A DNA stretch of 64,000 bases from a virus (IMGVR_UViG_3300031418_000003), one strand, 5' to 3'; numbered from the stretch's first letter, positions 7,423 through 22,611 are shown. The notes: generated by a model not told the origin, from the letters alone. Numbers and translations are program-made.

Positions 7423-7467
7423 GGTGCGAGTTCCTTGGGTTGAAAAGGTTTGAGTTTATACATAGTA

Positions 7468-7482
7468 ATAATGTCGGACTAA
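7468..7482 (-). promoter_or_regulatory. Phage promoter motif TNAG-N3-KAYATTAT
   Basis: TTAGTCCGACATTAT on the minus strand; one of 8 copies upstream of leftward gene blocks. Confidence 0.7.
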
Positions 7483-7519
7483 AAAGATATGCAAATGAAA
7501 AAAATTAAAAGGCAATAAA

Positions 7520-7547
7520 CCTCTACTACCCAGTTGGGTAGTAGAGG
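7520..7547. terminator. Terminator hairpin (CTAC/GTAG family)
   Basis: CCTCTACTACCC-agtt-GGGTAGTAGAGG; near-identical to 30..57. Confidence 0.8.
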
Positions 7548-7556
7548 ACAGGAAGA

Positions 7557-7913
7557 TTAAATGCTGTTAAATTCCTGAAAAACAATACTGGCCATATCTT
7601 CTACTGCTTCATCGGTAAGGCATTCCCCGACATCTTCAGCAGTGATGTCAGATAGCTTCTTGCCGTTGAAAGGAAAGGGATATATGACGTTGAAGTTTTC
7701 CAGATAGGAAAAATGGATGACCACTTTGTCTTGATCATCATAAACCTGAATGATCATTTTAGGGCCGTCACGAAAGCGCATGGCCGGATGAAAATTATTA
7801 GGGTCATGGATGTTCTTGAGATTTCTAACCAGTGGCTCTAAATATTTCCGCAGTTCTTGTTCGGTAATTCGTTCATTACCTTCTTCAGGTAGGTTATCTT
7901 TGATGCGCTGCAT
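7557..7913 (-). CDS. Hypothetical protein
   Basis: ORF with GAGG RBS. Confidence 0.72.
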   Translation of the reverse strand: MQRIKDNLPEEGNERITEQELRKYLEPLVRNLKNIHDPNNFHPAMRFRDGPKMIIQVYDDQDKVVIHFSYLENFNVIYPFPFNGKKLSDITAEDVGECLTDEAVEDMASIVFQEFNSI

Positions 7914-15274: not shown

Positions 15275-15877
15275 TTAAACCTCAAAAAGTTTCTCCGGAC
15301 TCACTACCTGAAGGTTCTCATCTCTGATCTCACTCAGAGCACCATTGATGACCATGCCTTCGAAAATGTGGTATGTTCCGCCCTTGTTGATATGAACCTC
15401 AAACTGCGCGTCAAAGGTTTTGGTAAAACGATGAGGGTACAATACTTTATAACCCAGACAATACTCCAGATTATTTTTACTTTCTGATCGCCAGAACGAA
15501 ACCGTCTTCTTAATATACTCGGATGCTTCATAAGTCAACCAGGTATCAATGATACGGGCAAACAAATTAAAGCGAGTATTAATTTTGTCGTTCATCCTGA
15601 AGACGAAGTCGTGATTGCGGACTTCCTGGAGAATGAACTTACGGATCCCTTCTTTAGGGCGAGTGAATTTAATTTCACCATCCCGCTCAACGCCGAAGAT
15701 ATGGAGATGCATGGAGTGATTGATAATGAACTCAATTCCCACCATTGGCACTGACGTTAATTCAATGGGTTTGAGAGCGGATGGATCAACTTGGTAGACT
15801 TTGATCTGTTGTACAGTAAAATGTTCGTTCAGCAGATCGGTAAATTGGGTACGTACGTTTTCAAAGTTCATAATCAT
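15275..15877 (-). CDS. Hypothetical protein
   Basis: First ORF after a promoter motif; AGGA RBS. Confidence 0.75.
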   Translation of the reverse strand: MIMNFENVRTQFTDLLNEHFTVQQIKVYQVDPSALKPIELTSVPMVGIEFIINHSMHLHIFGVERDGEIKFTRPKEGIRKFILQEVRNHDFVFRMNDKINTRFNLFARIIDTWLTYEASEYIKKTVSFWRSESKNNLEYCLGYKVLYPHRFTKTFDAQFEVHINKGGTYHIFEGMVINGALSEIRDENLQVVSPEKLFEV

Positions 15878-15930: not shown

Positions 15931-16006
15931 ATAATTATGACAAGTATTTATTTTATGTAAGAAACACCTGACATGTTCTCTACTTTTTTATGGGAGTCTT
16001 AATCTA

Positions 16007-16491
16007 TTGCCAGAGAGCCCATAACGAAGTATGACCGCCATCGTGCTTCGAGGTAACAGCCTTGTTCGTCCAATTACTATTTATGCCAAGGGAGAGTGCT
16101 ACCGTTCTCTCCCTTTCTTTGAATATATTCGCTGAGTGTATTGAAAGAAAGTGTGGGGGCATACTTTCATTCTGCTGTGTAGTAAGGTCATGATAAACAA
16201 AGCCCAGAGGCTCGGTCTTCCTTTTCCTCCTTCCTCTGGGCTTTTATCGTGTGTTTCTCTATATTAATTTTTTTTTTGCTGTAAGTTGATATAGAGAAAT
16301 GACGCGCTGTTATTTCTGCTCTTGTTGCTTAGCCTGAACGTTTGGCAAGGGGGATCGACATCCCCCTCTTTCTATATGCATTTGCGAGTGTCTATAGAAA
16401 GCGAACGCCTAGCTGGTATCGCTTGCTTGATGGAAGTGCCACTCTATCAAGTTCTTCAGCCCTATATGTTGCTGTGTGCTTATAGGGCTCT
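16007..16491 (+). ncRNA. Putative structured non-coding RNA or long leader (about 10 consecutive hairpins)
   Basis: No credible ORF; many 8-12 bp inverted repeats plus nested long-range pairs. Confidence 0.45.
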
Positions 16492-16511
16492 TTTTCTTTT
16501 TAAGGATTAAT

Positions 16512-16811
16512 ATGCCACAAGTAGAATCAGCTAGTCCAGTTCTGGTAACTTACGGTGTTGCTAACGAAGCAATGTTTTCTACATTAGAAAGCAAGAAGCT
16601 CAAAAAGTACGCACGCGTGGGTTGGAACGGAAAGAACCTGCATGTTCAGGTACATGGTAGTATTCCAACTAATCAGGTAGATCTGGGTAACGGCGATAAC
16701 GCATACCTTAACCCGTTCCTTGTTATCGTTAACAAAGATCGTGGCTCGGTAGACACCTGGGTTCCATCAATCTCTGACCTTCAAGGCAAAGATTGGTACG
16801 AAGTAATTTAA
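16512..16811 (+). CDS. tad2: DUF2829 / Tad2-like nucleotide-sponge anti-defence protein
   Basis: ARVGWNGK, NPFLVI and WVPSISDLQGKDW motifs typical of DUF2829; AAGGA RBS before MPQVES. Confidence 0.75.
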   Translation: MPQVESASPVLVTYGVANEAMFSTLESKKLKKYARVGWNGKNLHVQVHGSIPTNQVDLGNGDNAYLNPFLVIVNKDRGSVDTWVPSISDLQGKDWYEVI

Positions 16812-17043
16812 TAATGCAGAGTTTATACTCTGTAAAAGAATTCCAGCCGGAGAGTGTAGCACCTTAGCTGAGTGCATCCGGTATCTCTCCCGACTCTACA
16901 TGTTCCAGTCAACGGGAAAAGATCCAGATCGACAGGACCACAATTAGGTTGATCAATCAATAGATAAGTTTTATGTCGAAATGAGAACAGTCCTTTCACA
17001 GCTTCTGAAAGTACACCAACTGTATCTAATCGAGATTAAATAG

Positions 17044-17268
17044 ATGAAACTTTATCTTATTGAACGTACCGATAAATGTCGGCATTACGATAACTATTTT
17101 GCTACAGTGGTAGCAGCGCCAACAGAGGAAAGATCACGTGAGTTAGCGTTGGCTTTATTCGCTGAGGGAGATCAATCATCTTCGGATGAATTCCTCAACG
17201 TAAGCACGGTCGCTATAAGCGCTCTTGTCCCTGAGGGTATAATCTTATCCGAGTATAATGCTGGATAA
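17044..17268 (+). CDS. Small hypothetical protein (YDNYFATVVAAPTEERSR)
   Basis: ORF in the rightward operon. Confidence 0.7.
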   Translation: MKLYLIERTDKCRHYDNYFATVVAAPTEERSRELALALFAEGDQSSSDEFLNVSTVAISALVPEGIILSEYNAG

Positions 17269-17276
17269 GAGTAATG

Positions 17277-17331
17277 GCCGCCTGTAATACCCGAGCAATC
17301 GGGAATTACTGATTTGAATATCAAAGGCGGC
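17277..17331 (+). ncRNA. Small three-way-junction RNA structure
   Basis: GCCGCCT/AGGCGGC closing stem; GTAAT-CCCGA-gcaa-TCGGG-ATTAC; TGAT/ATCA. Confidence 0.5.
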
Positions 17332-17406
17332 AATATTATTAAGAGTTCATCTTATTTATCTTTTGACTGAACTGTCTCAGTCGATAAAAATATAAAGGTA
17401 AGTAAA

Positions 17407-17922
17407 ATGGATTCTATTGGGATGCTGTTAGTTGTGCTGGTTGTAGGTGTACTTATTGGTGTTGCACTTTACCATTTCTTCTCTAAGAAGAAAGAGGGTA
17501 ATATCGGCACCGATCCAAAACTGCAGGCTTATGTGGACTCCGTCCAAAGTCAGCTGCAAGCGCAGGTGAATGAACTTAAAACCAAACTTCTTCCTGCCGA
17601 TGTCCAAGAGAAACTCAAGGATGTTGGCGATGGGTTATGGGAAACGTTCAAAGCAAAAGTCCTGGCTGATTTAACAGAACTGAAAGAACACGGCTTGACC
17701 CATGTTGCAAATATCGATGCTGTTGTTCAACAGGTTGAGAACTTCACCAAAGAAGAACTGGTGAAACTTCATCTTGAAAAAGAAGAAGCACAGACCCCAG
17801 TTCCAAAACCTGTGGTAATAGGAAGTGATCCTATCTTGACCGTTTCACCTGCAGGTCCACAAACTGTGGTCTCTTCTGCACCGACGGTTCCTGTTGCTGA
17901 TGATCAGAACAAAACAGTTTAA
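17407..17922 (+). CDS. Type II membrane protein with coiled coil and Pro-rich tail
   Basis: N-terminal TM helix followed by KKK, then a heptad-rich segment. Confidence 0.75.
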   Translation: MDSIGMLLVVLVVGVLIGVALYHFFSKKKEGNIGTDPKLQAYVDSVQSQLQAQVNELKTKLLPADVQEKLKDVGDGLWETFKAKVLADLTELKEHGLTHVANIDAVVQQVENFTKEELVKLHLEKEEAQTPVPKPVVIGSDPILTVSPAGPQTVVSSAPTVPVADDQNKTV

Positions 17923-17931
17923 TAGTTAGTT

Positions 17932-17956
17932 ACCTGGGTCTCGTGCCCAGGTTTTT
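17932..17956 (+). terminator. Terminator
   Basis: ACCTGGG-tctcgtg-CCCAGGT then TTTT. Confidence 0.7.
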
Positions 17957-18000
17957 CTACCTTCTCTTCTTAAAGTTTTATTACGATAGAATTTTAAGAA

Positions 18001-18366
18001 GGGCGGTACCGATTCCGTCTCGGTGGTCGAGGGCTAGGCGTGCGAAGGGAGTAGGGATGCGACATCCCTATGATATGTCTTGGTTGTAATAGCTTCCAAG
18101 TAACTCTAGATGAGACAAATGACCCCGGCAGCCAGCCGGTTAAACATTGTGCGGAATCACAATGAGGGGCAAAGACTCTTGCATAAAGATTTATTAATAT
18201 AAGTCTTTGAGCGAGCGTTTCGGGTTGGGTGCGCCAAAGGAGCCATCGTAGGCCAGGTCTGAGGGATAGTGACATAGTCACGTGATGTCAGAAGCGGGTT
18301 GCCGTGAGGTAATCAAACCGAGTACAGTTGGACTTTGTCTGACCTGGGAGTTAGTGACTCCCACCA
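18001..18366 (+). ncRNA. Unclassified GC-rich structured RNA of about 365 nt ending in a hairpin plus ACCA
   Basis: Multiple helices; GC-rich relative to flanks; 3' GGGAG-ttagtga-CTCCC-ACCA. Confidence 0.55.
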
Positions 18367-18367
18367 A

Positions 18368-18404
18368 GCTTCCATAGTTCAGTCGGTAGAACGAGGTATC
18401 TGAT
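18368..18404 (+). pseudogene. 5' half of a tRNA (remnant) fused to the HNH start
   Basis: GCTTCCA-TA-GTTC-AGTCGGTA-GAAC-G = acceptor strand, U8A9, perfect D-arm; no T-arm or 3' acceptor strand found. Confidence 0.6.
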
Positions 18405-18876
18405 GGATTTAAATGATTTAATGGTTCTTAAGGATAAGATAACCCGTGATCCAGAAACTAACTGTTGGAACTGGAATAAAAGCACCAGGGAAGGCTATGG
18501 TCAGATAACGATAGATGGGGTGCATTGGACCACACATCGGTATGTTGCCACAATCATCTTTGGCGTTATTCCAGAAGGCCATGTAGTGAGACATTCTTGC
18601 GATAACAGATTGTGCTGTAATCCAGGTCATTTAAGACTGGGAACACATAAAGATAACTGGAAAGATTCTGAGTCAGTTCACAGGGAATCTCATGTTAAGA
18701 TGAGAAGGGCATTAGGTTGGACAGTTGGAGATACGATTTATCCGACATCCAGAACAGCTCAGAAAGAAACAGGACTTCCTATGAAAACTCTAATGAGACA
18801 TATGAAGAACGGGATCTTCGATTTGGAAGCGTATCGCTCCGGATGTAAAAAGCGGGGAGTAATCCCTAAAGTTTAG
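18403..18876 (+). CDS. HNH homing endonuclease
   Basis: CWNW...GYG...HR...VVRHSCDNRLCCNPGHL...THKDN motif; GAGGT RBS. Confidence 0.9.
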   Translation: MDLNDLMVLKDKITRDPETNCWNWNKSTREGYGQITIDGVHWTTHRYVATIIFGVIPEGHVVRHSCDNRLCCNPGHLRLGTHKDNWKDSESVHRESHVKMRRALGWTVGDTIYPTSRTAQKETGLPMKTLMRHMKNGIFDLEAYRSGCKKRGVIPKV

Positions 18877-18912
18877 CTTTTAGCAAGACTTGAACTTGCT
18901 AAAAGAGTCAAA

Positions 18913-19012
18913 TTACACGCCATGCGGTTGTGCCGGGGTGCAACAGGCCAGGGGCGCTTAGGCGACCATACCTGGGATCCACTTCCCATCTGTCGGTAGG
19001 TGTGGTGTGTAA
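18913..19012 (+). ncRNA. Unclassified ~100-nt multibranch RNA
   Basis: 11-bp closing stem TTACACGCCAT/GTGGTGTGTAA enclosing 3-4 short hairpins; followed by a terminator. Confidence 0.5.
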
Positions 19013-19030
19013 CCCTTTATTAACGAAGAG

Positions 19031-19060
19031 AGAAGGGGTCAGTTGATCCCTTTTCTTTTT
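19031..19060 (+). terminator. Terminator
   Basis: AAGGGGTC-agtt-GATCCCTT then TTCTTTTT. Confidence 0.65.
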
Positions 19061-19079
19061 GTTTGTCCGGAGATAATTT

Positions 19080-19190
19080 ATGTCTTTATTAAAGAAGCTT
19101 CATAACTGGTTTTATAAAGATATGGTTTACTCTGTTTCAGCCGATGCTTGGTTCTACCAAGAAGGCGCGGCAGGTGAATGGGTGGATTAA
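19080..19190 (+). CDS. 36-aa peptide (MSLLKKLHNWFYKDM...GEWVD)
   Basis: GGAG RBS; stop overlaps the next ATG (TAATG). Confidence 0.55.
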   Translation: MSLLKKLHNWFYKDMVYSVSADAWFYQEGAAGEWVD

Positions 19191-19363
19191 TGAAAATTCA
19201 CAAAGTAACTTCTGACCGTATTTTCTTTACCACGGATTCTGGTGCTTATGGATCTGTTCTTAAAGAAGATGTGAGCAAATTAGTAAAAGCAATTGATCTG
19301 CCCGAAGGTAAGATCGATGCTCGTACTGGAACTTGTATGACGGAATTAAAGGAACAAGAATGA
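19190..19363 (+). CDS. Small hypothetical protein (MKIHKVTSDR...)
   Basis: Coupled to both neighbours. Confidence 0.65.
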   Translation: MKIHKVTSDRIFFTTDSGAYGSVLKEDVSKLVKAIDLPEGKIDARTGTCMTELKEQE

Positions 19364-19620
19364 AAGTAGTGATTTACGGTAAAGAAGGCTGTGCTTTCTG
19401 TACCCGTGCTAAAGAGCTTTGCGAAGCCAAAGAGATCGATCACGAATATATCGATTTCGTTAAGACAGGCATGACCAAACAAGATCTCGAGCAGATCGTG
19501 GGTAAACCTGTTGGTACTGTTCCACAGATCTTAGTGGACGGTGTTGCTATTGGTGGTTACACTGACCTGGTTCCCCTGGTTCAGAAACATACCACCCCTG
19601 TTCAAATTGAGAAGGAATAA
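19360..19620 (+). CDS. grx: Glutaredoxin
   Basis: GKEGCAFC active site, TVPQI and IGGYTDL motifs. Confidence 0.92.
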   Translation: MKVVIYGKEGCAFCTRAKELCEAKEIDHEYIDFVKTGMTKQDLEQIVGKPVGTVPQILVDGVAIGGYTDLVPLVQKHTTPVQIEKE

Positions 19621-19623
19621 CCT

Positions 19624-19761
19624 GTGGATTTTGATTTAGACGATCTGAACCTTGACGGTCTGGATGAAGCTGAAGCTCGTAACCAAGAGCGCCAGGCTGA
19701 AGCTAACAAAGAAGCAGCTGCTATCGATGATGATGCAGATTGCGAAGGTTGTAAAATCTAA
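19624..19761 (+). CDS. 45-aa acidic peptide resembling the NrdA C-terminal redox tail (…DDDADCEGCKI)
   Basis: GTG start with AAGGA RBS; terminal CxxCKI; missed by the ORF track. Confidence 0.7.
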   Translation: MDFDLDDLNLDGLDEAEARNQERQAEANKEAAAIDDDADCEGCKI

Positions 19762-19787
19762 TTTTAATAAGGCGATAAATTTTGACT

Positions 19788-19925
19788 ATGAAAAAGAAAA
19801 AGACCTCTTTGAAAGAAAAGATTCGTCGCCAAAATCAGAATGCCGAGAAGCATCTGTACCTCGACGGCGATGGTAATACATTTAGTATGACCAAAGTTAA
19901 AGACGGGTACAAGTTAAACGTGTAG
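19788..19925 (+). CDS. 45-aa basic peptide (MKKKKTSLKEKIRR...)
   Basis: Fills the gap in the operon; missed by the ORF track. Confidence 0.55.
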   Translation: MKKKKTSLKEKIRRQNQNAEKHLYLDGDGNTFSMTKVKDGYKLNV

Positions 19926-19987
19926 GGTAGCGATATCCTATTTCTATTTTGATCTCCAACCACTACTACTAACTGCGAGATAAAAAT

Positions 19988-20608
19988 ATGCAACTTAAAT
20001 TAATTACATTCGACAAAAACAATTATTCAATCAGTACTCAGTACATTGAGCTAGATGGCCTAGCCATTGTCGAGTACCGTTCTCCGATCACCGGTGAATT
20101 TTCTCCCAGTAACACCCAAATCCCGTCGATAACTGATCCCTCTATAATTGCAGTTATTATCCAGAATAGCTTTGCTAAAGCTGAACCTATTCAAATAAGC
20201 AAGCACCAGGGTGCTTATTTAACGGATTCCGGTAAAACGATGGAGGTGATTAACAGACCTTCAGACTTTGACGATATCCAAATTTGGATCAAGTATGATA
20301 AAGAAGAGGGAAACTGGGAACGCGAAACTCTCAGTAGTTATATGGACGAGATTCACTATCGACGTCTGGAGTATAAATATTTAGTTTCTCCCCAAGGAAT
20401 GAATCCAGAAGAAGTGGAGAAACAGATTTCCCTTACCATGGAGGTTGGTAAAAGCGTACTTTGGAGCCGTTATATAAAAGGTACGTCTTTAACTTTCAAA
20501 CTTTCCAGCCAATTCGAATATGACCGGTTCTACAACGACCCAGATTACCAGTTCATCAAAGTTCCGGTTGGTGTCGACCCTAACACGCAAGGGTTTAAAC
20601 TTACATAA
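19988..20608 (+). CDS. Hypothetical protein
   Basis: ORF, 206 aa. Confidence 0.75.
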   Translation: MQLKLITFDKNNYSISTQYIELDGLAIVEYRSPITGEFSPSNTQIPSITDPSIIAVIIQNSFAKAEPIQISKHQGAYLTDSGKTMEVINRPSDFDDIQIWIKYDKEEGNWERETLSSYMDEIHYRRLEYKYLVSPQGMNPEEVEKQISLTMEVGKSVLWSRYIKGTSLTFKLSSQFEYDRFYNDPDYQFIKVPVGVDPNTQGFKLT

Positions 20609-20629
20609 GTATATTATGTAATTCAATCG

Positions 20630-21645
20630 AGTGTAACTGTTTGCTGTTCTGAGGAATAGCATGGTTTCATTACCCCGTTATATTCGACTGTAAGACCCTC
20701 GTTATCCAGGTGTGGGTACATAACGAGGGCAAACCAGCAGGTTGCACTGCTGGACTAAATCCAAGAGTGAAAGCTGGCTTAAGTCCAGTAAAAACTAAGT
20801 AGCTCTTGGTGGGCGATGCAATAGTTTGAAAACTACTGTGTCATAGCAACGCGTCTAAAGTAAACGGTCCCTTCGTATAAGCTCAATACACTTTGGCGTC
20901 CGCGCCGAAGAAATAAGAGATGAACCCGAAACACTCTCAGGGACCCCTCTTCGGAGATAATAGCTTTAGAAACGGGAACGTTGTGCCCATTCCTTAACGA
21001 TGGTTATCCGTCGTTATCCCTTTGTACCAGTGGCTGATATCCAAGTAGAGCTTTAATTATACCTGACGGATAGCGCTCACAGTGTTTCAACCATTGGTAC
21101 AACCTCTTGAGGATCTTGAACGAAAACCGTAGGGTAACCGCTGAGCACATTGCGTTGCATTCAAGGCGGCTGTAGCAGGAGACTGGGTAGTCTTCCTGGG
21201 TGATATCAAGATCCTCAACCTTATCTACTCTCCGTGATATGGAGTAGACAAACCCTGTGGTGGGGGCATCGTAACCATCTGATGAGTCCGCGATGTAAAA
21301 AACAATGAGACGAAACGGGTTCTGTCAAAGGGGACTCCAACTCCAGACAGATCCGTCATGAATCGCTCCGCCTTAACTGTGAAGAGCATCCTCAGTCTAC
21401 GATTCTAGAGGAACAGCAGCGCTACCTGCAAAGGACCATTGGCAAATGGGATCTTAGGGTTAGCAAACAGTCCGCTCCTTTTGCCAGAGGAGAAGTTGTC
21501 AAAACCAAGAGGTGTAGACAGCCTTTAGTTCACTGTAGTGAAGAATCGGGGTTGCTCCCGTAGTAGTCACGAACAGTGATCTTTAGAGTGTTTACCGGAT
21601 AACAATATCGTACGCCCCTACCTCCTCACGGGGGTAGGGGTTTAT
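20630..21645 (+). ncRNA. Large (~1 kb) structured non-coding RNA with an embedded hammerhead
   Basis: ORF-free; nested long-range helices join 5' and 3' parts; ends at a terminator. Confidence 0.7.
21259..21372 (+). ncRNA. Type I hammerhead ribozyme
   Basis: CUGAUGA 21279-85, stem II GUC/GAC, GAAA 21312-15, stem III 21316-26/21346-55, GUC cleavage triplet 21355-57, stem I with loop-loop pseudoknot. Confidence 0.88.
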
Positions 21646-21646
21646 G
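21615..21646 (+). terminator. Terminator hairpin (CTAC/GTAG family)
   Basis: CCCCTACCTC-ctcacg-GGGGTAGGGG then TTTATGTTT. Confidence 0.75.
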
Positions 21647-21756
21647 TTTGGCTTTTCATTTGATCATATGAGCTCGTTCCATATATGTCCTAGGATGGAT
21701 GATATATGAAACATCTTATTATAGTTAATAAGACTATTTCGAAATAGAGGTAACAT

Positions 21757-22611
21757 ATGAGTTTGAGTAGCCCTGTCGATTTTGCTATCGACTATGTAAT
21801 GAACGGTCCAACCGATATCTCGGAATATCTGTTGAAGTTGGCCTTTCACAATCCCAATAACGGGTACGGTGGCATCTGGGGAAATCCCAATGACTCCTTC
21901 TCTGTAGAGCAGGGTATCCGTGAAAAAGTCATCGCCAAGATGGTTGCGCCGTTACTTCAGGTAGCCGGTGGTCAAACTGAGATCATTGATTTGTCCGGTG
22001 CACAGATTGAGAATTTAGCAGGCGGTGTTATTTGGGTTTCAGTACCCGACTTCATGACCGGTGGTCGTCGTATCATCGAGGTAATCGAAGTCTACCCAGG
22101 CAATATCAATCGAGCGGTTGCTAACGGTTATAATTTTGGCAGTGCTGCAACTTGTGGTGGCGGGGCAATCAATAACTCGCTGAGCCGATTGATGACTGGA
22201 TTAACAGACAGTAACGTTACTCGTTCTTTCAACAGCTTTACTATTGTTGGACCCAACTCTTTCCTGATTCGTGATGCGGGTTCGGCAATGTTTAACATGA
22301 TCGCCAAAGTGGTTCTCTCCTATGACGAGAGCTTTAACGGCGTACCTGTTAAGATGTTTGATAAGTTTGCTGAGTTAGTTGAACTCGGTACCAAAGCTTA
22401 CATCTATAAAACTTGCCGTCGCGGGATGCAAGAAGCAGTCTCTCGTTTTGGTGTAACTGTAGATGATGTCCAAGATGACATTCAGGGATACTCCGATGCT
22501 GCTCAGCAGTTCAAAGAGTTCTACAACGACAAGATGAAGAAGTACATGGCTTATGCTGATGCCAAAGGTAAAACCGACCAACTTAAAATGATTGTTCCAA
22601 GGAAACGATAA
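21757..22611 (+). CDS. Conserved phiKZ-like virion structural protein (putative)
   Basis: Position in the late cluster upstream of terL; GAGG RBS. Confidence 0.6.
   Translation: MSLSSPVDFAIDYVMNGPTDISEYLLKLAFHNPNNGYGGIWGNPNDSFSVEQGIREKVIAKMVAPLLQVAGGQTEIIDLSGAQIENLAGGVIWVSVPDFMTGGRRIIEVIEVYPGNINRAVANGYNFGSAATCGGGAINNSLSRLMTGLTDSNVTRSFNSFTIVGPNSFLIRDAGSAMFNMIAKVVLSYDESFNGVPVKMFDKFAELVELGTKAYIYKTCRRGMQEAVSRFGVTVDDVQDDIQGYSDAAQQFKEFYNDKMKKYMAYADAKGKTDQLKMIVPRKR

Follow-up and report, generated by a model that had tools for sequence, protein, structure and literature searches.

A tRNA locus of an OBP-like jumbo phage that has probably lost its tRNA genes and kept an array of structured RNAs

Introduction

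What becomes of a phage transfer RNA (tRNA) locus once its tRNAs are gone? The question is raised by positions 16007-21645 of a 64,000-nucleotide stretch of viral DNA (IMGVR_UViG_3300031418_000003; that whole stretch is hereafter the window), which an earlier note, made from the sequence alone, described as an island of five structured non-coding elements at a place where related phages usually keep tRNAs. The window derives from an OBP-like (phiKZ-type) jumbo phage whose closest database relative is Erwinia phage AH04 (Meadowvirus), at 77-82% nucleotide identity. More remote relatives are Pseudomonas phage OBP, Klebsiella phage N1M2, Serratia phages Sureiya and Yubaba, and Shewanella phage SXP01, and four IMG/VR contigs (260-277 kb) are also related. 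Scans of the IMG/VR collection yielded only the few jumbo-phage contigs already known, and a metagenome scan contributed one further related contig, L024.

Comparison across these phages suggests that the island is a stable-RNA/tRNA locus of an OBP-like jumbo phage in which tRNA genes were lost while structured RNA genes were kept and partly gained, a reading to which we assign a probability of roughly 70%. The island holds at least seven structured RNAs on the + strand and is not one coherent evolutionary unit. Element 1, a Tad2-like gene, element 1b and a 1-kb ribozyme-bearing RNA ahead of the structural genes form a core of the clade, into which tRNAs, tRNA look-alikes, elements A, B and C, small open reading frames (ORFs) and an HNH endonuclease gene have been shuffled. 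Of these, the HNH gene and elements A, B and C have a patchy distribution and are exchangeable; in other phages, A and B lie directly 5′ of tRNAs and C directly 3′. Because the tRNAs are gone while the RNAs remain, the latter appear to be selected for something besides tRNA maturation.

Results

A syntenic tRNA locus without intact tRNAs

The island spans ~5.8 kb between a leftward gene starting at 15877 and a structural gene starting at 21757. All nine relatives examined carry between one and four tRNAs at the syntenic spot: Asn, Ser, Arg and Met in both OBP and Sureiya; Asn, Arg and Met in N1M2; Asn, Ser and Cys in SXP01; Cys in AH04; Asn and Ser in the relative designated L008; Asn in L009; Ser and Cys in L010; and Tyr in L012. 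This synteny comparison, which the earlier note had proposed as a check, bears out its statement that related phages keep tRNAs here. ARAGORN detects 0 tRNA genes in the window, a count that covers these 64 kb and is compatible with tRNAs elsewhere in this phage genome; what is left at the locus is a 5′ half, as had been noticed before, together with a decayed 3′ remnant.

The 5′ half (18368-18393, + strand) is a tRNA-Asn pseudogene that comprises positions 1-26, that is, the 5′ strand of the acceptor and the D-arm, and 25 of its 26 nucleotides (nt) equal those of the intact tRNA-Asn of L009. Directly 3′ of it stand a Shine-Dalgarno sequence and an HNH endonuclease ORF (18403-18876, +; HNH_3, PF13392, E 6.7e-13; phrog_6254, E 3e-28), and then a decayed T-arm, acceptor and CCA remnant (18883-18910, +) that is recognised by comparison with L010 (GCAAG-ACTTGAA-CTTGC-TAAAAGA-GTCA in the window versus GCAAG-TTCGAGC-CTTGC-CGGGAGA-GCCA in L010). 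The window lacks a complete tRNA cloverleaf with an anticodon. L010 retains the unaltered form of this arrangement, with tRNA positions 1-26, the HNH ORF and tRNA positions 39-76 (UCCGU-AUGUC-T-arm-acceptor-GCCA) in succession, and from this order it follows that the HNH cassette substituted for the anticodon stem-loop (positions 27-38). The final tRNA of this locus, tRNA-Asn, was in this way divided between positions 26 and 39.

The break after position 26 is identical in the window, L008, L010 and N1M2, which are the phages that carry the HNH gene; it is absent from AH04, L009, Sureiya and OBP, and L009, Sureiya, OBP and SXP01 have an intact, HNH-free tRNA-Asn. An HNH catalytic domain and sporadic occurrence at one fixed tRNA site, the two features expected of a homing endonuclease, are thus both present, and the pattern matches a free-standing homing endonuclease aimed at the tRNA gene, for which cleavage is predicted. 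In L008 and N1M2 a distinct, complete tRNA-Asn follows the HNH cassette, which may be a case of cassette-borne repair of the target: this tRNA may be a nuclease-resistant replacement brought by the mobile element; the window is without it. We also considered a group I intron with an HNH ORF, or a splicable split tRNA, and rejected both, because the insert (18394-18876) consists wholly of the ribosome-binding site and ORF, with no Intron_gpI match or ribozyme core (P3-P9), and because the anticodon stem-loop is deleted rather than interrupted.

Between 15877 and 21757, 10 + strand ORFs were accepted as genes on the basis of Pfam, PHROG or protein matches or of synteny with annotated AH04 genes. 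With this curated set ~48% of 16007-21645 is non-coding, and the share is 38-41% even when all ORFs of at least 50 amino acids (aa) are counted as coding, compared to 4.4% outside the island; an earlier estimate of about 40%, set against tight gene packing elsewhere, falls within this range of 38-48%. Terminator-like hairpins are more than three-fold enriched (15 found versus 4.4 ± 2.0 in shuffles).

The gaps encode conserved + strand RNA structures

In relatives, the gaps of the island are conserved at levels equal to or above the identity of the flanking genes, and this holds for each of the five elements listed in the earlier note. Positions 17260-17409 are 90-94% identical to AH04, L008 and L009, and 16800-17050 are 86-93% identical to AH04 and L009; relative to AH04, 18909-19082 reaches 94% and 20576-21800 reaches 82%, compared to 72-83% for coding DNA. 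All five stand as conserved + strand RNAs, and only their count needed revision, in that the interval 18001-18366 consists of two unrelated elements, A and B, with differing phylogenetic distribution, and a further element at 16822-16960 had been overlooked. The different distributions of A and B also rule out a single 365-nt RNA at 18001-18366 resembling transfer-messenger RNA.

To evaluate folding, we compared the consensus fold of each element with those of alignments whose columns had been shuffled inside conservation classes. The z scores over all elements range from -4.2 to -16.3: -12.4 for element 1 (23 compensatory pairs versus 7.2 in shuffles), -8.2 for element A, -7.3 for the element 2 region (17262-17410), -5.0 for element C, -4.35 for element B, -4.3 for element 1b (9 compensatory pairs versus 2.1 in shuffles), and -5.6 to -16.3 for four blocks of the 1-kb RNA, while six control blocks from two coding genes gave +0.9 to -4.3. 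For every element, including all four blocks of the 1-kb RNA, the fold of the + strand is more stable than that of its complement. No Rfam family reached its gathering score anywhere in the window, and searches that included narrow windows and a homologue of element A returned a sub-threshold hammerhead as their sole match.

A 1-kb RNA with an embedded hammerhead ribozyme

The largest of these RNAs is a 1-kb structured non-coding RNA (20625-21645, +) that belongs to a ten-member family. It is headed by a promoter-like TATATTATGTAA (20610-20621, +), with GTATATTATGTAATTCA at its head invariant in five relatives, and it ends in an intrinsic terminator (21614-21641, +) formed by a stem of 12 base pairs (bp) followed by UUUAUGUUU and conserved with compensatory changes. 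It has no + strand ORF of more than 30 aa and is 82% identical to AH04, versus ~77% for genes. A profile built from five close relatives finds the RNA in N1M2, Sureiya, OBP, L012 and L024, and in four of these (N1M2, Sureiya, OBP and L024) it directly follows tRNA-Met. The ten-sequence alignment yields 94 pairs with RNAalifold, 53 of them compensatory, and contains many G-U pairs. The region 20600-21660 has no Rfam match at E ≤1, including to GOLLD, ROOL and other large RNAs. Two candidate long-range helices (20636-45/21462-71 and 20643-49/21411-17) were discarded because their substitutions are uncompensated in AH04, L008 and L009; positions 20642-61 form a covarying local hairpin. L008, L009 and L010 have an additional ~500 nt (~7430-7900; alignment columns 1240-1650) after the 1-kb RNA terminator and before the structural gene; the window and AH04 lack this stretch.

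Within this RNA lies a type I hammerhead ribozyme (21262-21369, +) with a predicted cut after C21357. Its layout consists of CUGAUGA at 21279-85, stem II at 21286-21311, GAAA at 21312-15, stem III at 21315-21356 and the triplet GUC. Both core boxes, CUGAUGA and GAAA, are invariant in 10/10 homologues, which represent at least three named genera, and the cleavage triplet GUC, with C at position H17, is likewise found in all ten. Stem I is open, which defines the type, and stem III is long and carries a conserved apical hairpin. The stems covary: stem II (GUCY...RGAC) changes from GUCC/GGAC to GUCU/AGAC, stem III from UCUGUC/GACAGA to CUUCAC/GUGAAG, UCCA/UGGA and UCAAAC/GUUUGG, and the proximal part of stem I from CAU/AUG to UAU/AUA. 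Positions 21267-72 of the stem I strand also form a covarying 6-bp pseudoknot with 21290-95 in loop II (alignment columns 739-744/763-768; CAUCGU/GCGAUG to UGUCGU/GCGACA and CCCG/CGGG); a pseudoknot of this type is used by about 40% of natural hammerheads, many of which lie in phage transcripts (PMC3088659).

The DNA pattern used to search for this hammerhead also retrieves canonical hammerheads from metagenomes. A type III reading, as suggested by the Rfam alignment, was rejected in that it would put G at cleavage position 17. On comparative grounds we regard the hammerhead as real and processing by it as well founded, which gives the island at least one built-in self-processing device, with self-cleavage being predicted. 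In L012 (7905-7960), the hammerhead is followed by only ~55 nt, comprising the terminator hairpin, versus a conserved ~290-nt 3′ domain elsewhere; there the ribozyme would merely trim the terminator from the 5′ RNA.

Exchangeable elements beside tRNA genes

Element A (17966-18172, +) consists of a 36-nt perfect AU-rich hairpin (17966-18001) and a multi-hairpin core of ~175 nt, with 14 of its 40 predicted pairs compensatory among five sequences. Copies are present in SXP01 (86% identity), OBP (75%), the Salmonella jumbo phage SA002, the 75-kb Pseudomonas putida phages Holyagarpour and Ebordelon, and L015, and the copy in OBP ends 7 nt 5′ of tRNA-Asn. A profile search found no element A in AH04, L008 or L009, it has no Rfam match, and the collection scan found no copies in bacterial genomes. 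A T-arm-like hairpin occurs in three homologues, with a T-loop that is not conserved in the window or SXP01. We discarded a likeness of GGGUGGUACCG in the SXP01 and OBP copies to a T-box, as other copies keep the helix and not the motif. In Holyagarpour (L007:2034-2724), element A occupies a 690-nt unannotated gap between genes for dCTP deaminase and 'tellurite resistance', with no tRNA nearby; in SA002 (L006:2464-2690), it overlaps an annotated 39-aa 'hypothetical protein' that is probably not a gene.

Element B (18173-18367, +) is a structured RNA that abuts the 5′ end of tRNA-Asn. It was found only in N1M2, Sureiya and Yubaba (87% identical), where it likewise runs to the first base of tRNA-Asn, and is absent from AH04, L008 and L009. 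Its minimum free energy z score is -3.4 and it shows three compensatory pairs, a weaker level of support than for the other elements. Elements A and B share the opening 18-mer TAAAGnTTTATTAnnATA, which has two exact matches in the window and one further match with two mismatches (0.2 expected at ≤2 mismatches). The 18-mer lies inside the long perfect AU-rich hairpin. Read from the alignment, the stem of this hairpin shows covariation among phages, and the hairpin is likely to be both part of the RNA and an endonuclease site. Because they are absent from AH04, L008 and L009, A and B are best described as exchangeable modules rather than core genes of the clade.

Element C (18911-19012, +) is an RNA of ~100 nt that begins right after the CCA end of a tRNA and contains 22 invariant nt, CAUACCUGGGAUCCACUUCCCA. 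It is preceded by a tRNA in N1M2 (the second tRNA-Asn) and L012 (tRNA-Tyr), by the 3′ half of a tRNA in L010, by a tRNA look-alike in AH04 and, in the window, by the decayed remnant. Its closing helix and inner helices covary, and its covariance model, R1, finds just these five copies; bacterial genomes gave one 20-mer match, about what is expected by chance, with the rest of the element missing. Two other interpretations of C were rejected. First, the 3′ part of B and C might have been two copies of one HNH-flanking motif, and the C covariance model, run with filters off, gave no match to B at E ≤10; the two do have some short blocks in common. Second, C might have been a ribozyme of the theta (hepatitis delta virus, HDV, -like) or hatchet type; it has no Rfam match, and a 9-bp covarying helix joins its 5′ and 3′ ends, a pairing that is incompatible with the nested double pseudoknot of the HDV fold. 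Neither ARAGORN nor Rfam recognises a tRNA in A, B or C.

Several relatives carry an additional conserved RNA of ~107 nt that is shaped like a tRNA, with an acceptor-like stem, a T-arm-like hairpin and a long arm with GGAUGAUUAGUUUC. It is located between the tRNAs and element C in AH04 (L001:3650-3757), N1M2 (L002:3375-3490), SXP01 (L004), L009 and L010. ARAGORN makes no call on it in these relatives, and it is absent from the window.

Elements 1, 1b and 2

Element 1 (15965-16505, +) is a ~540-nt leader of the Tad2-like gene made of a series of hairpins with compensatory changes, one stem, for example, changing from CCCAGAGG/CCUCUGGG to CCUAGAGG/CCUCUAGG. It is preceded by the promoter-like AT-rich 12-mer TATTTTATGTAA (15949-15960, +), which is conserved in AH04, L008 and L009. 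TATWTTATGTAA has only two exact matches in the 64 kb, in this motif and at 20610, each heading a non-coding element, which suggests a promoter role for both. The 8-mer TATWTTAY was also considered as a general promoter motif and was set aside, as it is not enriched in the window. Four hairpins of element 1 carry U-rich tracts; those at 16090-16111 and 16348-16367 were called terminator-like by the scan, and those at 16199-16244 and 16458-16490 were read from the sequence and alignment. A profile of element 1 finds it in AH04, L008-L010, OBP, N1M2, Sureiya, L012 and SXP01, always ahead of the Tad2-like gene. The reading frame that opens at ATG 16031 is not coding, since it is frameshifted in AH04.

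Element 1b (16822-16960, +) is a structured RNA with invariant single-stranded ACAUGUUCCAG and CAGGACCACAAU. It is 86-93% identical to AH04 and L009, exceeding coding identity, its stem varies from CCGG/CCGG to CUAG/CUAG, CCUG/CAGG and CCGA/UCGG, and a profile finds it in eight phages, including OBP and N1M2. Element 2 (17277-17331, +) is a 55-nt three-way-junction hairpin within an intergenic stretch that is 90-94% identical to AH04, L008 and L009, so far the only relatives in which it has been found. In L009, a 77-nt insertion falls exactly in the tip of its first hairpin.

Coding content of the island

The Tad2-like, HNH and glutaredoxin genes and the small peptides described for this segment were recovered with Pfam and PHROG matches, the small ORFs ranging over 36-74 aa. 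The Tad2-like protein (16512-16811, +; 99 aa) matches PF11195 (E 3e-13, 50.5 bits versus a cutoff of 25), and sponge activity is putative for this product, which is assigned by its domain. It is followed by a 74-aa ORF (17044-17268, +; phrog_5444, E 5e-12) and by a 171-aa ORF of no known family (17407-17922, +) with a terminator-like hairpin downstream (17932-17952). As a coding control, one block of the 171-aa ORF (alignment columns 180-350) had a z score of -4.3, and it may hold conserved RNA structure inside the ORF.

Beyond the HNH gene and element C, an intrinsic-terminator-like hairpin with a U-tract (19022-19063, +) folds as a hairpin in the alignments and is 94% conserved in L008 and AH04. 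It precedes a block of small proteins (19080-20608), all on the + strand: ORFs of 36 aa (19080-19190) and 61 aa (19178-19363), a glutaredoxin (19360-19620; E 1.5e-10), an acidic 45-aa ORF directly after it (19624-19761; phrog_10239), a second 45-aa ORF (19788-19925) and a 206-aa ORF (19988-20608). Four of the five small ORFs of 36, 45, 45, 61 and 74 aa have PHROG or protein matches. The 36-aa ORF aligns at 67% identity with the last 36 residues of a 68-aa protein of Kuravirus ES17, beginning at an internal Met of that protein, and its DNA likewise matches that of many phiEco32-like E. coli podophages; this jumbo phage and unrelated small phages thus appear to have a tiny protein in common.

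Public records also place minus-strand hypothetical genes over some of these + strand RNAs, namely OBP_015 (L005:1412-1543), AH04 gene 23 (L001:1643-1813) and N1M2 gp252 (L002:4127-4639). They overlap element 1 or the 1-kb RNA and are not kept as ORFs, and they are likely misannotations.

Discussion

A locus that held tRNAs in its relatives and here retains conserved structured RNAs can be explained in several ways, and a number of observations weigh against our preferred reading of it as a stable-RNA/tRNA locus. The expression, ends, cleavage and stability of these RNAs are predictions from sequence. Promoters are assigned by motif alone, and TATWTTAY is not enriched. The best Rfam match of the hammerhead, to Hammerhead_3, scores 17.0 versus 48.5 bits (E 0.31) and appears only when 176 nt are searched alone, and RNAalifold offers an alternative pairing for the 5′ flank of the ribozyme. 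For C, B and 1b, the z scores (-4.3 to -5.0) do not improve on that of the most extreme coding-control block (-4.3), and element B is built on three near-identical sequences, with its three compensatory pairs matched by 9 of 100 shuffles. Lastly, elements 1 and 2 could be purely cis-acting structures of untranslated regions (UTRs) rather than RNA genes.

Extending this last point, most of the elements might be cis-regulatory parts of mRNAs, with element 1 as a leader that attenuates or stabilises the Tad2-like mRNA, 1b and 2 as UTRs or terminators, and A, B and C as mere leader or trailer spacers of a former tRNA operon. We consider this account possible but doubtful. Element 1 does sit between a promoter-like motif and the ribosome-binding site of the Tad2-like gene and has hairpins with U-tracts, element 2 begins 9 nt past a stop codon, B and C abut tRNA ends in relatives, and jumbo phage 201phi2-1 commonly makes small RNAs (sRNAs) by premature termination in 5′ UTRs (PMC11512511). 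However, the copies of A in the 75-kb Pseudomonas phages have no tRNA within 5 kb, and the one in SA002 is ~1 kb away from its nearest tRNA; A, B and C are all retained here without any functional tRNA; C keeps its invariant 22 nt among phages whose flanks no longer align; and the 1-kb RNA is bounded by a promoter-like motif and a terminator of its own, with no cis gene before the terminator.

The patchiness of A, B and C raises the alternative that they and the tRNA fragments are passenger DNA moved by homing co-conversion, with their identity reflecting recent transfer rather than function. Although A and B are missing from AH04, L008 and L009, phages of Shewanella, Klebsiella and Serratia have copies of them at 86-87% identity. 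Both, like C and the tRNA fragments, border the site of the HNH insertion, and homing co-converts flanking DNA, as is reported for SegB in the T4 tRNA region (PMC2330249). We nevertheless find this explanation quite unlikely, given that the 14 compensatory pairs of A across copies that are 73-86% identical imply long divergence under structural constraint, and that Sureiya carries B and OBP carries A, both without the HNH gene. Transfer and function are, moreover, compatible with each other.

A role as decoy, anti-defence or translation-rescue RNAs, for instance as mimics that soak up tRNA-targeting nucleases in an island shared with a Tad2-like sponge, has in our judgement little chance of being the explanation. 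Consistent with such a role are the position at a tRNA locus adjoining the Tad2-like gene, the T-arm-like hairpin in three homologues of A, and the use of phage tRNA loci and homing endonucleases in escape from tRNA-cleaving defences such as Septu (PMC13096335). Conversely, neither ARAGORN nor Rfam calls any of these RNAs a tRNA or tRNA-like, the T-loop of A varies in the window and SXP01, the window lacks the tRNA look-alike that is conserved in relatives, and no defence system or target was identified. That the 1.1-kb gap works as DNA, such as a replication origin or packaging site, is very improbable: it is large, free of ORFs, richer in GC and fixed in its genomic place ahead of the structural genes, but its many conserved G-U pairs would be A-C on the other strand, its + strand is the more stable in four of four blocks, and it contains an invariant hammerhead core with covarying stems between a promoter-like start and an intrinsic terminator.

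A stable-RNA/tRNA locus that lost its tRNAs thus remains the interpretation we favour, and a tentative outline of how its RNAs arise can be given. The earlier note had supposed one co-transcribed cluster; because the island contains two or more promoter-like motifs and six or more terminator-like hairpins, several units are more likely, and the RNAs would be made in units that each run from an AT-rich phage promoter to a terminator. In relatives, RNase P and 3′ processing would free A, B and C from tRNA precursors, and the perfect AU-rich hairpins opening A and B may serve as RNase III-type endonuclease sites. Cleavage by the hammerhead after C21357 would generate a ~730-nt 5′ RNA with a 2′,3′-cyclic phosphate and a ~290-nt 3′ RNA with a 5′-OH.

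As for function, phage T4 provides the nearest precedent in the form of its stable RNAs C and D (species 1 and 2; rnaC and rnaD), which are encoded in its tRNA cluster. As in T4, the locus described here is a tRNA locus with small, presumably stable structured RNAs, small ORFs and a free-standing homing endonuclease, and A, B, C and the 1-kb RNA abut same-strand tRNAs in OBP, Sureiya, N1M2, L012 and L024. Unlike the T4 cluster, the island is without tRNAs, its RNAs exceed those of T4 in size and number, and one of them is a 1-kb RNA that contains a ribozyme. The endonuclease of the T4 tRNA cluster is SegB, which mobilises that region (PMC2330249, PMC13096335). It is of the GIY-YIG type, whereas the one in the island is an HNH enzyme inside a tRNA gene. 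By analogy with T4, our best guess is that the island RNAs are stable accessory RNAs of the translation and tRNA sphere, like RNAs C and D, whose persistence may be due to an action independent of the tRNAs that they once flanked. Taken further, the island might be a self-processing RNA operon of OBP-like nucleus-forming phages, in which the hammerhead together with host RNase P- and RNase III-type cuts would release stable ornate RNAs (including 0.3- and 0.7-kb species) that act in trans on host translation or tRNA surveillance, for example by modulating ribosomes or by diverting tRNA-cleaving defences as decoys, and that survived tRNA loss; we regard this full scenario as speculative and rather unlikely as it stands.

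The individual RNAs also have counterparts among known systems. GOLLD and ROOL (RF01998, RF03087) are large ornate RNAs of phages and prophages, 0.5-1 kb in length and often beside tRNA genes. The 1-kb RNA resembles them in being large, intricately folded, phage-borne and tRNA-adjoining in relatives, and differs in having no Rfam match, in belonging to a clade of OBP-like jumbo phages (of Enterobacterales and Pseudomonas) and in containing a self-cleaving ribozyme. That ribozyme, in turn, is similar to the pseudoknotted phage and prophage hammerheads (Perreault et al. 2011, PMC3088659; clan CL00010) in its full core, GUC triplet, short stem II, 6-bp pseudoknot and long phage transcript. In contrast to those hammerheads, it is of type I with a stem III of ~40 nt and a conserved apical hairpin, scores below all Rfam thresholds and is embedded in a conserved structured RNA of 1 kb, not placed between genes.

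The jumbo phages 201phi2-1 and phiKZ make leader sRNAs by premature termination, one of which in 201phi2-1 lies immediately upstream of a tRNA (PMC11512511). A and B, 5′ of tRNAs in relatives, and element 1, ahead of the Tad2-like gene, occupy similar positions, although those sRNAs are defined by transcript ends and the island elements by conserved structure. Element C recalls the HDV-like theta ribozymes found 3′ of phage tRNAs, where they trim tRNA trailers (PMC10879173), in that it begins at the CCA end of a tRNA in N1M2 and L012, and is unlike them in its 5′-3′ end helix and in having no Rfam match to HDV or hatchet ribozymes.

The kind of locus described here is therefore already known from T4 tRNA clusters, phage hammerheads, jumbo-phage sRNAs and GOLLD/ROOL, while these particular RNA families are without an Rfam model, and a literature search on them found no paper. 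At least six such families without an Rfam entry (1, 1b, A, B, C and the 1-kb RNA) occur together in one phage clade, and large conserved structured RNAs of unassigned role are rare. The locus also shows a homing endonuclease aimed at a tRNA gene, in some relatives with a putatively resistant replacement tRNA, which fits work tying homing endonucleases of tRNA loci to defence escape (PMC13096335). The phage represented by the window amounts to a natural experiment in which the tRNAs are gone and the RNAs are kept, implying that the function of these RNAs is genetically separable from tRNA supply. In phiKZ-type phages, the DNA is shielded in a protein nucleus and transcribed by RNA polymerases of the phage itself. 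For such phages, stable RNAs made early could help to handle host translation or RNA-level defences.

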